64,000 bases of DNA from Octopus vulgaris. Taxonomy: Eukaryota. Location of the stretch: contig OX597826.1 of assembly GCA_951406725.2 (NCBI GenBank), positions 25,544,001-25,608,000 of the forward strand, in the 5' to 3' direction. Each line of letters starts with the position of its first letter. The first letter of the stretch is position 1. The position numbers and the translations under genes are program-made. Below the pieces are notes generated by a model. The model did not search any database, had not been told where the DNA came from, and was given only the letters and a program-made list of their open reading frames with translations. Positions 3,495 to 56,558 of the stretch are shown piece by piece.

Positions 3495-3840
3495 GTGTAA
3501 TAAATAAAATATATGCATACATACAAACATATATGTACGTACCTACATCTACATGTATATACACATGCATATATAAATATATATACGTGTGTACAGGACA
3601 CCACAAATAGACGTAGAACTCAACGAGAAACGAAAATGTAAAAACAGCATGGAACGGACCATTCCTTTAACAACGAAAAAACAGAGTACAAGACAACTAC
3701 ACAAGGAAAAATCCCCTTCATCAGCCGTCCCTAGTTCAACTCCAGCGTGTTTCGAAGTTGAGGACAGAGCACGTCTCGTCGAACTAGTCCTTCCTGCGAA
3801 GGAATTAAATAAAATTCCTTTGCAGAGGGGTAAAAACAAG
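3495..3840 (-). mobile_element. Non-autonomous PLE-type terminal repeat (same family as 56220-56558)
   Basis: Reverse complement matches 56220-56558 (ggtgtcctgtacac...gtaggtacgtacatatatg); contains a hammerhead core. Confidence 0.6.
3711..3832 (-). ncRNA. Non-circularly permuted hammerhead-like ribozyme (degenerate cleavage triplet)
   Basis: Minus strand: cccct..gaag-ga-ctagttc..cgtg-ct-ctgtcc..cttc-GAAA-cacg..gaactag-ggacgg-CTGATGA-agggg. Confidence 0.6.
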
Positions 3841-27428: not shown

Positions 27429-29515
27429 ACTGCGCATGTGCGAATAATTGTGGTGTTCGGCACCAAAGAGGTGAGACATGCTTTTGAAGCCGTCTCGAAT
27501 TGAAAAGTTTTGAAGCTAAGATTTTGTTTTTTGGGTCCAGTGGGAATTTTTGTTGAGAATTGTTTTTGTACAGGCAGGAAGTCCTACTGGATTCAGAATT
27601 CTGGTTCTGCCTACTTGGGGCAAATACTTTTTCTCGCTGAATTGTGAGAATTTTTGTTTGAGGGCGTATTCGTCTTCGGTTTATGTTGCGTGAATATTTG
27701 TCTCACTTAATTATGAGAATTATTGCTTGTATTGTGGCTTTTGAAGAACTTTAATAATTGCGAGAACTGCTGTTTGGGGGAGTGTCTTTGCCTCCGAAGA
27801 TTGAACAATTTGTATATCAATTTTTGTGGAAGTTGTGTTCCAGTTGTGGCGTTCCGGGTTCAACCTAGGCCGGGAGTACCGAATGGCCGGAAGATCTTTT
27901 TGCTGTGTTCCTGAACTATTGACTTTCTTCTAAACTTTATTTGACTTTCTCCTTTTTGTTTATTGTGACTTTCTTTTGATTTCTTTTTTCTTCTCGCTTT
28001 TTAAGTTTTATTTTGAATATATTTTCAAAAAAAAAAAAAAAAAGAAACATGGCAATGAAAAAAGACAAAGTTTTGGAGTGGGAGATTATACCGCCCAAAA
28101 AGTGGTTGAAAGACCGTGAAGATAGGAAGGTGGTGTTGAGAACCTACTCCAAGTCACTCGACAACATCGCCCTATTCGAAAAGACGGCAATTGAAAAGGA
28201 GTTGGCGGAGTATTTGCCAACAAATTCATTTCCAGGGGTGTCAGATATGCAACGGTGTAGTTGCTATTTGATACCCCTGAAGAGGCTCGCAAATTTACTA
28301 GTCAGCCCTTGGAGGGTGAGGAAATTTTGTTCCTTCCTACATATTATGGGAGAGGTTGACGAAAGCTTGGGTCTGCGGGTTGCCACCCGGGATAAAACCC
28401 AAATAGATAGAGGAGACTATCCGCCAGGGTCTGTGTGGCAGCGGGACCAAGCTTCTTAATGTGAAAGTTCTTCTTGCGGCTGATTGGTTTGGGTCAAAAC
28501 TGTTTTGACTTTTTTGACCCAATCAGCCAATCTGGTTTTTCCAGATTTTTTTTTAAATGGCCGGGTGCAGGTACCCGGTGATACTTGAGGGTGCCCCCCC
28601 CCCCCAGGTGTCATCGGTTCCTGGAGTCCGGCCATATAAAGAAAAACTGTCCCGGGAACAAAATAAGGTCCCGGAGCAGTTGAGTGAGACCCCTGTAGAA
28701 GAGGGAATGAAGGCGGCCGAGGAAGCGGAGGACTCCTCAAACAGGGGCCGAAAGAAGAAGAAGGTGAGCAACAATGGGTGCTCACTGAAGGATCCTAGGG
28801 ATGAGGAGGGGAAGGCGAATCTTCCGGCCACGGAGGTGATGCACCCTCCCTCAGTTGAAAAGAAAAAAAAGAGGAAGAGGAAGAGAAACGAGACATTGCC
28901 GGCAGTCGGTGACATAGTACCGGAATGTCCCGGAACTACGTCGGTTGGGGTTGTGCCACCGGCAGGAGAAGAAACACCGTTGGCGGGAACTGTGCCGCCA
29001 AGGAAAGAATTGGATATACCGCCCCCGGAGGAAGACGAAATATTGATCTTCTTCTATAGAGGTGGAGAGATTGAAAAGGTGATGGAAAAGCACGACAAGG
29101 GAGCACCTTTAGCCTTCACACAGGACCCCGAATGGCCTCTGCAGATAGCTGTGGAGGCCATAACGTTTGACGTGACGTTTGGGCTGAAGGGGCTCAATGA
29201 GGAATATCGCTTGTACCCGGGCAACGCTGACACGGAACTCGATTCGGCTTTGAAAGAGGCGTGGAGGATGGTAGAGGATGCGGGCACAAGTTATTTTGAG
29301 AGTGAGTTATAAATTGTGGCACTGTGTGACACAAACATTTGATAATAGGCACTTCGCTTTCTTTCTGAACTCCCGGCTGTCAACATGGTCTGCTCTGCAG
29401 GCGGCTAAATAATTGACTGGGGGTCCGGAAAGAGGAGGAAGGGAAAAGTGATAATGCATTTTTTATGTTTGATTGACTTGTTGATTTTTATGTAAGTGGC
29501 TAATTTGATAAAATA
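27429..29515 (+). mobile_element. ORF1-only Tx1/L1-like non-LTR retroelement
   Basis: 15-bp TSD aagaagct(a/t)gcttcc; ~600-bp 5' UTR, one broken ORF, AATAAA-like 3' end; no RT or endonuclease. Confidence 0.7.
28049..29312 (+). pseudogene. Frameshifted ORF1-like nucleic-acid-binding protein
   Basis: RRM-like ISRGVRYATVxLLFDTPEEARKF, then YPVILEG and zinc knuckle CHR(F)LESGHIKKNC at 28609-28650, basic NLS-like KKKKRKRKR. Confidence 0.65.
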
Positions 29516-32653: not shown

Positions 32654-33331
32654 TTGAGAGGGTTGTGTGTGGAGATGTATCCCAAATCAAAGAAAAACTT
32701 ACAACCAAAAGCCTTACCATACATCTCCACACACAACCCTCTCAATAACGAAGCCTTCGACACCATCCTCCACAACATACCCCTCCTAAAAAAAGACCAC
32801 AGAATGAACACAATCCTCCAAACACACACGATCATAAAAAGCAAAAGACAGCCTAGATCCATGAAAAGTCTCCTTACACAAGCCCGAATTCACTCTTCAA
32901 CACAGAAGCCGACAGTAAAAAAATGTGGAAGACCCAATTGCGGGATATGCGACTATCTAATCGAGGGTTCTGAGTTCTCCTTCAAACAGGGACAACGGTT
33001 TACAGTGAAAAGCAACTTCATATGTGCTTCGGAGAACCTAATATACTCACTAACCTGCTCCGGGTGTCAAGAGCAGTACATAGGCCAAACAAAAAATGGT
33101 TTGCGTAAACGAATGGCCCTGCACAGATCCCAGATAAAAATTCCCCAAAACAGAAAAATAGCTTTTAGCCGACACATAGATACTTGCGCCAACAAAAAAA
33201 CACCAAACTTCAGAATTTTCCCCCTCTACCAATTTAGGGACGATACAACCTCGAGACAACGAATAAGTAAAGAAAATCTCTTTATTACAAAATACAAGCC
33301 ACTTCTTAACGGGTCTACGACAAACAATTAA
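32654..33331 (+). CDS. PLE C-terminal region: Cys-rich linker plus GIY-YIG endonuclease (5'-truncated, stop-free)
   Basis: KKCGRPNCGIC linker (Neptune-like), NLIYSLTCSGCQEQYIGQT, R..LH, KENLFITKYKPLLN; first ~9 codons derive from the inversion. Confidence 0.85.
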   Translation: MRGLCVEMYPKSKKNLQPKALPYISTHNPLNNEAFDTILHNIPLLKKDHRMNTILQTHTIIKSKRQPRSMKSLLTQARIHSSTQKPTVKKCGRPNCGICDYLIEGSEFSFKQGQRFTVKSNFICASENLIYSLTCSGCQEQYIGQTKNGLRKRMALHRSQIKIPQNRKIAFSRHIDTCANKKTPNFRIFPLYQFRDDTTSRQRISKENLFITKYKPLLNGSTTNN

Positions 33332-34942: not shown

Positions 34943-35015
<73 letters not shown>

Positions 35016-35102
35016 CCAAAGTGTACGTACGTCGCTATATGTATATAAAAAAGAATACAAAAGGTGGGATAAGAACGCAACAGGCGATAACAAAACATCC
35101 AG

Positions 35103-35368
35103 ACAGATGATACAGAAAACGACAAGAAAAAACAAGAACGAGTCAATCGGAGTTTTCTATACTCAGTCGAGTTCCATATCATCTTTGCAGTTTCGGCTGG
35201 TTATACTTGATAATGCTCCAATCTCGATTTTCCTTGGGGCTGGTCAGATTGGAGCAGTCTTGAGTATAACCAGTCGAAATTGCAAAGATGATCTGGAACT
35301 CGACTGAGGAAAGAAAATTCTGAATGTCCCGTTCTTGTTTTTTCTTGTCCCTTTTTGTATCATTTTGT
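35103..35368. repeat. Inverted PLE-type terminal-repeat pair
   Basis: Arms ~35103-35224 and ~35246-35368, imperfectly complementary, between microsatellite tracts. Confidence 0.8.
35227..35318 (+). ncRNA. Non-circularly permuted hammerhead-like ribozyme
   Basis: attttcctt-gg-ggctggt-cagatt-gga-gcaGTC-ttgagt-ata-accagtc-GAAA-ttgc..gatctg..actcga-CTGAGGA-aagaaaat. Confidence 0.7.
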
Positions 35369-55532: not shown

Positions 55533-56558
55533 TTGCGCTTATTGTCCTGTATCTCTCTTTTTTTGCTTGTCTTGTTCCTTGGTTTGTGTCTATGTTTTTC
55601 GTCTCTCTATGTGTTCGACGTCTTTTTGGTGTCCTGTACACATATATGCGTGTATATGTACATGTAGAGGTAGGTACGTACATATATGTTTATATATATG
55701 CATATGTTCTATTTTATTAACATATTATACGACTAAACGCACGCACCCTATTAAGTAAGATTGTTCTGTTTATCAAGTTAGCCTTGATATTAACTCTCAC
55801 GCGACTCTGCATCTTTCTTTCTTTCTCTCCCATTCCCTTTTTCCCTCACTTAACTTGTCTCTTCCTCTCTCTCTCCCCCTCACCGTTCTTCATGGTCTCC
55901 TCGCACCATTCCCCTTCTTCTCTCTCTTCCTCTTGCTCCTCCTCCTCCATTCCCGTCGTCCATCTGCGACGATACTTCCGTCGTAACTGCTATCCTGTCT
56001 TTTCTCGGCTGCCTTCTAAGGCTACTGGTCTGACATTCTTTCTCTCTCGTCGTCCACTATAATCCAGCGTTTGCAATACTTTTTTCGTCTGGCGTTAACA
56101 GCCCTTCTTATCTTGTTCTCTTTGTCCTGTCTCTCACTGTTATATATTTATTTTTCCACTGTTTATATATATATATTTTTACTGTTTATATGTTTGTACT
56201 GTCGTTACCGTCTTGCTTTTTTTTACCCCTCTGCGAAAAGATCTCAGAATTTTAATTGATTTGCTTTTCGCAGGAAGGAAGTTTTCTTCGAAGTATACGT
56301 CTCGCTTTTATCCTTCGAAACGTTTAGTAGATGAAACCTTAGCGACTGAAGAAGGGGATTTTTCGTTGTGCTTATTGTCCTGTATCTCTCTTTTTTTGCT
56401 TGTCTTGTTCCTTGGTTTGTGTCTATGTTTTTCGTCTCTCTATGTGTTCGACGTCTTTTTGGTGTCCTGTACACATATATGCGTGTATATGTACATGTAG
56501 AGGTAGGTACGTACATATATGTTTATATATATGCATATGTTCTATTTTATTAACATAT
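55533..56558 (+). mobile_element. Non-coding PLE-type element with 193-bp terminal direct repeats, embedded in (TA)n
   Basis: 55533-55725 matches 56366-56558; hammerhead core lies immediately before the 3' repeat. Confidence 0.65.
56226..56357 (+). ncRNA. Non-circularly permuted hammerhead-like ribozyme
   Basis: cccct-hairpin-gaagga-agttttc..acGTC-tcgct..tccttc-GAAA-cgt..gaaacct-t-agcga-CTGAAGA-agggg. Confidence 0.7.

Follow-up and report, generated by a model that had tools for sequence, protein, structure and literature searches.

How far can the strands of a hammerhead ribozyme be rearranged, and what kind of element would carry such a form? The question is raised by a short segment of the 2.8-Gb, microsatellite-rich genome of Octopus vulgaris, which lies in a 64,000-nucleotide stretch of contig OX597826.1 (positions 25,544,001 to 25,608,000, forward strand; hereafter the window). 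From comparisons with related copies, we regard the segment at 35226-35363 as a worn, front-truncated copy of a likely self-cleaving RNA with a scrambled hammerhead order.

Layout of the copy at 35226-35363 and of its relatives

Alignment to a natural full copy identifies the segment as a forward-strand copy of a repeat, family A, truncated at both its 5' and 3' ends, with its start at 35226 falling inside the 3' arm of a hairpin, H. The leftover of that arm (35226-35237; the 5' arms of H and of a further helix, E, are absent) is followed by the 5' arm of stem II (35238-35243, with G10.1 at 35238), which stands apart from the CUGAnGA motif and pairs with 35270-35275. Next come the 5' arm of helix B, the stem I-stem II interaction helix, with the G-A of a predicted kink-turn (35244-35253), and block S (35254-35265), which comprises the 3' arm of stem III, U16.1 (35258), C17 (35259) and the 5' arm of stem I, the predicted cut site being 3' of C17. 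Block G (35270-35283) supplies the 3' arm of stem II, GAAA (35276-35279) and the 5' arm of stem III, and gives way to a 3-nt bulge and the G-A of the predicted kink-turn, then to the 3' arm of helix B (35284-35296). The first half of block C (35298-35310) holds the 3' arm of stem I and CUGAGGA (35304-35310); behind it, at 35311-35326, are the 3' arm of helix E (35311-35317) and an outer E arm reaching 35326, the partners of which are gone. The core of CUGAnGA, GAAA, U16.1 and H17 is intact and the GUC is kept, and stems I-III carry wobble substitutions. All 11 of the 11 motifs named in an earlier, sequence-only reading of this DNA lie where it had placed them, and its predicted cut after C35259 is strongly supported by analogy with known hammerheads.

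Head to head with the forward copy (35226-35363) lies a second 5'-truncated family-A copy on the reverse strand (35012-35224), which is set in (TA)n and includes the element's 3' end. Only this inverted twin has a tail, of about 30 bp (35012-35040), which matches the description of Naiads and other PLEs in the consulted text of Craig et al. (2021; PMC8557442). The span given to the twin earlier, 35150-35224, is to be extended to 35012, the element's 3' tail being included. The twin's core, S block and helix B are all mutated. The Watson-Crick alleles that had been drawn from it in support of the layout are indeed present, but they are those of the family majority and come from a copy with a mutated core; they add little, and the support for the layout comes from covariation between subfamilies. 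In place, the two copies fold into a hairpin of -167 kcal/mol. Self-cleavage by the truncated window copy is therefore unlikely, because it has lost the 5' arms of E and H, carries wobbles in stems I-III, and would be sequestered by its inverted twin. Nested folding of the 92-nt RNA proposed earlier from this site is not unusually stable against shuffles (z -1.22), as would be expected of a pseudoknotted fold with two crossing helices.

In full copies, sequence comparison gives the 5'-to-3' order E5'-H-II5'-B5'-[III3'-UH/I5']-[II3'-GAAA-III5']-B3'-[I3'-CUGAnGA]-E3', that is, a strand order S-G-C in which CUGAnGA and stem II are no longer adjacent, helices E and H occupying the space between them. 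Across families A, A2, B, B2 and N (introduced below), the arms of E, H and stem II join with the core without an unpaired base, and this is the geometry predicted for a perfect four-way junction. A 3-nt bulge and tandem G-A pairs separate stem III from helix B in five of six families, a combination which, set against the general kink-turn consensus, we read as a predicted kink-turn; family B and the loci outside this genome do not fit that reading.

A strict descriptor of the layout (stems I and II of at least 5, stem III of at least 4 and helix B of at least 5) found two matches in the window (35259 and 56301), against one in 150 dinucleotide shuffles of the window. When all strand orders were allowed, the window returned S-G-C only, which speaks against types I, II and III with their C-G-S cycle. 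Nor is block C uninterrupted: the best stem II following CUGAnGA in the window copy has 2 bp, and the actual 5' arm lies upstream and not within 2 nt of that motif. A canonical type I reading by way of the GAAA just after CUGAGGA was rejected, there being no stem I partner downstream, and the descriptor's assignments of E and H in the window copy were discarded as spurious, as they use the inverted twin. At gathering score, Rfam gave no match on six representative family loci or on 20 Naiad loci, and an Rfam E-value scan of the window gave microsatellite-driven matches only, among 150 of the 344 matches listed.

Another form to be compared is the PK hammerhead, which was reportedly first described in Weinberg 2015. 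In the consulted part of Zhan et al. (2024; PMC11300833), it resembles the present RNA in having the core plus an extra helix, with helix II formed as a pseudoknot; unlike here, helix IV, the additional one, takes the form of a stem-loop attached to helix I, and the connectivity is pistol-like. That description mentions neither a break between A9 and helix II nor a four-way junction, and on this basis we set the two apart. The 'additional helix' variant to which the consulted portion of PMC13725137 refers appears to be this PK hammerhead.

A closer likeness is to the type-SGC and type-CSG hammerheads, which, in the consulted text of Eckert et al. (2023; PMC10085705), share with the present RNA the S-G-C cycle, a 3-4-nt linker between stems I and II and a full core. 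Type SGC further shares a helix that binds the far sides of stems I and II, so that block order, short linker and interaction helix are all found here. Unlike in type SGC, block C is split, and the 5' arm of stem II lies upstream, behind E and H, and not after CUGAnGA. Hence, judged from its strand order, the rewired form would work like type SGC without being a member of it, since the contiguity of block C fails. According to the same text, in vitro cleavage is seen with both strand cycles, CSG and SGC, and known hammerheads have at most one or two inserted nucleotides within block C; the split seen here contrasts with that limit and counts against a catalytic reading. We found no description of a rewired split-block hammerhead in the literature searched, in which coverage of subscription journals was poor.

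Conservation and covariation across repeat families

Seven families with this layout were collected (A, A2, A3, A4, B, B2 and N, the last being of Naiad type). Taken family by family, spanning copies with an intact core number 22/29, 26/30, 3/3, 18/22, 15/16, 16/20 and 23/27, or 123 of 147 overall, figures which are biased upward as the searches favour query-like copies and which are inflated for family N, most of whose copies were found with a pattern demanding GAAA and CUGAUGA. The units of families A and B have in common only low-complexity matches of 18 and 21 nt, and, as had been suggested earlier, the family-A copy shows no BLAST similarity to the family-B copy at 56.2 kb.

Within their own families the majority arms pair almost throughout (stem I 35/35, II 32/35, III 21/21, E 31/35, H 32/35; 151/161 in all), versus 313/644 when arms are swapped between unrelated groups (I 67/140, II 68/140, III 31/84, E 92/140, H 55/140). 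Two-sided changes are found at 21 of 23 positions, and every helix has compensatory changes across the seven repeat families of the genome. In a MAFFT alignment of 49 copies from the four A subfamilies, 95% of cells are paired and 12 of 24 pairs have two-sided changes; none of 500 shuffles reaches the observed percentage paired, number of changed cells or covariation score, and slid partners give only 15-50% paired. Two other measures do not go beyond shuffles, namely the number of pairs with a two-sided change (reached in 70/500) and further pair types (350/500), and the relatedness among copies, which are not independent within a family, inflates such tests. Because MAFFT shifts A4 in helices E and H and in most of stem III, these were counted per family and kept out of this alignment.

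The individual helices differ in how well they are kept. Stem II has two-sided changes at four of five pairs across the A subfamilies; helix B is 91% paired in the 49-copy alignment, with two-sided changes at two of six pairs, and forms nine of nine pairs in the outside loci L320, L322 and L326. In family A, helix E is paired in 93% of 145 cells; in the 49-copy alignment outer E reaches 95.5%. The paired share of E falls to 0.72 in family N, 0.81 in A2 and 0.60 in A3, and that of H to 0.63 in A4, all four of these families having mismatches in E or H. Stems I, II and III thus flank the core and covary, as in a hammerhead, and helix B would provide the tertiary contact between stems I and II. 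The proposal that unrelated repeat families have a non-circularly permuted hammerhead layout in common is strongly supported by the covariation and the descriptor matches, and we hold this scrambled layout, as read from the aligned copies, to be very likely real.

Carrier repeats and the link to Naiads

Family A is represented by 82 matches in the 40 candidates scored of 3071 found at first look in the octopus genome. Its unit of about 740 bp is non-coding, forms partial tandems (with a period of 738 in L010), ends in a tail of about 30 bp and sits in (TA)n. The unrelated family B is young and has a complete six-helix copy in the window (56226-56357, forward strand, C17 at 56301), where it stands in partial tandem (55533-55647 and 56080-56480, forward strand); a B2 copy with all six helices and U16.1 changed to C is found at 3713-3830 on the reverse strand. 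An 18-mer of family B has 496 exact matches genome-wide, and the best 40 matches of the family are 98-100% identical. Tandem arrays reach six units, as in L273, where six 835-bp family-B units are flanked by inverted copies. Four assembled contig sets, presumed to be of RNA origin, cover the unit; assembled contigs cannot show RNA ends. Two other repeats deserve mention in their own right: an abundant, near-palindromic repeat of about 200 bp (L017:1160-1360, L199-L203; 2475 first-look candidates) and, in a GC-richer stretch of the window at 28557-29312 (forward strand), a 251-aa Lys/Glu-rich open frame that is probably part of another mobile element.

In their (TA)n target, 5' truncation, partial tandems, adjacent inverted 5'-truncated copy and tail of 30-40 bp, these insertions have the hallmarks that the consulted text of Craig et al. 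(2021; PMC8557442) gives for Naiads and other PLEs. Unlike Naiads, families A and B are only 740-840 bp long and have no match to an RT or endonuclease among their loci, so that they are not themselves autonomous Naiads; nor does either resemble the Naiad 3' end in sequence, family A having only the layout in common with it. The carrier is best described as a Penelope-like non-coding repeat. Such repeats resemble the animal non-LTR retrozymes, non-coding tandem units with one hammerhead each which, in the consulted parts of two accounts, are regarded as non-autonomous PLE derivatives passing through circular RNA (Cervera and de la Pena, 2020, PMC7229834; Li et al., 2026, 10.64898/2026.07.22.740005). 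As described there, however, retrozymes have type I hammerheads in units of 150-450 bp, in place of a rewired hammerhead in units of 740-840 bp.

Within this genome, 13 of 25 loci with a Naiad RT end have a family-N ribozyme downstream on the same strand, and the octopus Naiad consensus motif has 400 exact matches, against none to its reversed control. The RT piece matches proteins with N-terminal GIY-YIG, CxC and DKA motifs. All 83 Naiad RT matches in the genome lie in short open frames of at most 263 aa, with no intact Naiad ORF, and a word-indexed homolog search with the RT piece and two viral-contig scans found nothing. An intact PLE family with a 781-aa product and a C-terminal endonuclease was not supported as the parent, as ten 9-kb loci of it showed no such ribozyme, the sole match (L059) being weak, with a 2-bp helix B. 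Intact 781-aa ORFs of this C-terminal GIY-YIG family (L051-L060) are numerous in the genome, and the family also has an ORF upstream and a 3' region that is LTR-like; one of its 3' fragments is present in the window at 32684-33331 (forward strand).

The layout follows the Naiad RT in metagenome contigs too. At 90 outside Naiad-RT loci (4 of 94, L378 and L385-387, were left out as their matches end well short of the RT end), the strict descriptor found three downstream sense matches, no antisense match and no upstream-sense match, besides one canonical-order match that is upstream-antisense; a relaxed pass added L326 and L384. At these ribozyme loci all the helices pair, with different letters. 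Among outside loci with at least 500 nt downstream, 5 of 55, from about three lineages, have the layout and most lack it. Three loci that carry the ribozyme (L320, L326 and L384) also have the ORF of an autonomous Naiad, with GIY-YIG, CxC, DKA and a C-terminal RT. Most telling is L384:3620-3720, in which the order is C-S-G and two local hairpins, E and H, both closed, stand between A9 and G10.1; it is the same junction, opened elsewhere. The contig with this Naiad is filed under a Planctomycetota MAG and is probably eukaryotic carry-over.

The consulted text of PMC8557442 reports Naiads to be without canonical hammerheads, marks eight of them 'HHR_half_core' and does not resolve the present fold; the rewired hammerhead sits at the 'HHR_half_core' of Naiad_Ovul. 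Inspection by eye of the supplement of that paper, covering 58/62, 30/43, 15/25 and 15/23 places of four core spellings so that the counts are lower bounds, found the full split layout in at least nine entries (three from Acropora, two from Octopus, four further ones) among the 54 families listed, with two more fitting partly. In its nematode block, block C is unbroken in at least six Naiad entries, which follow the order C-S-G and of which one has one base inserted, and by eye these nematode Naiads appear to be plain type CSG.

Several further features of Naiads came to light. A conserved twister-like motif lies 250-640 nt after the RT match on the sense strand in 20 of 55 outside loci, and on the antisense strand in none (L308, L328, L329, L334, L336-341, L343, L345, L350, L351, L356, L359, L360, L364, L375 and L377); the ad hoc pattern used for it follows the general twister consensus, and Rfam gave no twister match in these loci. 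Naiad ORFs of about 1300 aa in L320:267-4187, L326:221-4117 and L322:2-1762 have a C-terminal UCH (ubiquitin carboxyl-terminal hydrolase) domain after GIY-YIG and RT, with a Pfam match at E about 1e-33. SECIS-like matches below gathering score in Naiad 3' regions (L334:3095-3159, L350:2146-2208, L360:3207-3269) agree with the selenoprotein Naiads described in the consulted text of PMC8557442. By eye, arthropod-block Naiad entries in its supplement (parts 16-19) have stems I and III in S-G-C order and are possibly further variants.

Mechanism, alternatives and significance

We propose two stacks in full copies, the core upon stem II and E upon H, joined without any unpaired linker, such that coaxial stacking at the four-way junction held by E and H would stand in for the A9-G10.1 bond. 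Helix B would clamp stems I and II as in type-SGC hammerheads, and in five of six families here the kink-turn would join B to stem III. The RNA would then cut after H17 (C35259) by standard G12/G8 chemistry; to judge from the consulted text of PMC10085705, an active core that cuts at this point can arise from a reversed strand cycle provided with an interaction helix. In tandem or circular RNA, the rest of the element would form the loop of E, and two cuts would release a unit RNA to be ligated and copied round, by analogy with retrozymes as described in the consulted part of PMC7229834. The role of the ribozyme would be to turn tandem transcripts into unit RNAs that are circularised and reverse-transcribed into (TA)n by a Penelope-like, likely Naiad, enzyme. 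With all core nucleotides and six covarying helices present in scrambled order, full copies, that is, those with both E and H, likely cut themselves, the A9-G10.1 link being replaced by the predicted four-way junction.

Two other explanations deny a ribozyme of this form. The sequence-only reading had taken family A to be compact, without H and with a single closing helix (attttcctt/aagaaaat), and the window 92-mer to be an active ribozyme. Eight pairs with one bulge can be drawn for that helix in the window copy, which keeps its core and GUC; however, this copy is truncated inside H, and 25 of 31 family-A places have both E5' and H5' upstream, one has H only and five have neither, with differing breakpoints. 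Read this way, there is no compact subfamily, and the six helices of the 56.2-kb family B are all found in family A. The proposed helices do recur across families, except for the closing one, in whose place E and H are found; it is a chance register of the H remnant with the 3' arm of E, at unfavourable energies. In the full copy L008 the nested set E+H+B+III has -21.4 kcal/mol and B+III alone -9.8, whereas the closing register with B+III has -7.7, worse than B+III alone; in the 92-mer the closing helix costs energy (-2.7 versus -5.5 kcal/mol without it). An unconstrained fold of the full copy recovers E, H, B and III, and in the window the inverted twin would draw the locus into its long hairpin. 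The compact form is thus very improbable, and the 92-nt RNA would be the wrong construct, whose failure to cleave would be no refutation, because this copy is truncated and the family carries the hairpin. A second possibility is that no RNA structure is under selection and the helices are chance complementarities copied along with a small number of repeat families, which would accord with the ordinary nested fold of the 92-mer, the dependence among copies of a family and the lack of an Rfam family at gathering score on six representative loci. Against this, the six helices persist, spelled with different letters, in unrelated families and in Naiads from other animals, and the strict descriptor matched as often as twice in the window but once in 150 shuffles; cross-family covariation largely refutes the idea, which we consider barely credible.

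A third explanation grants that the fold is real and conserved, and holds that its cleavage is slow, or requires a dimer or the binding of the element's protein, its main job being recognition by the RT. The split between A9 and G10.1 adjoins the active site, and in family-B arrays none of 63 mapped 5' ends starts exactly at the predicted cut: with no pile-up there, the ends spread over the unit, three of them within 8 nt of it, and therefore the templates run through the site uncut or re-ligated. There is also a precedent in the Poseidon PLE, which, in the consulted text of PMC11167929, uses mainly unprocessed RNA in vitro and has a hammerhead that does not cleave without protein and is dispensable for insertion in vitro. 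Yet all the catalytic nucleotides and the NUH are kept across unrelated families, the related CSG and SGC forms cleave alone (consulted text of PMC10085705), and uniform 5' ends and multimers are also expected from a ligated circular template. Arrays of up to six units with unit-wide 5' ends would fit such a template, and uncut templates equally well. We judge a slow or protein-dependent RNA to be improbable, and prefer self-cleavage by the full copies.

More generally, we think it probable that Naiads across animal phyla carry self-cleaving ribozymes that standard searches have missed. One of these would be a hammerhead with the reversed, C-S-G cycle; its catalytic strand would run uninterrupted in nematodes and, in corals, hydrozoans, cephalopods and other animals, be interrupted at A9/G10.1, where a perfect four-way junction is inserted. 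Other Naiad lineages appear to use a twister-like RNA in its stead. If true, hammerheads would gain an undescribed topology in addition to the six permutations, and animal genomes a first example of a non-circularly permuted ribozyme; such ribozymes, so far seen in environmental sequence only, would number hundreds to thousands of copies there. The working rule by which CUGAnGA and stem II have to be contiguous would fall, and the helix port thereby provided by nature next to the active site would lend itself to ribozyme engineering. It would also explain why Naiads, dominant in many invertebrate genomes, seemed to be without the hammerhead that other PLEs have kept.
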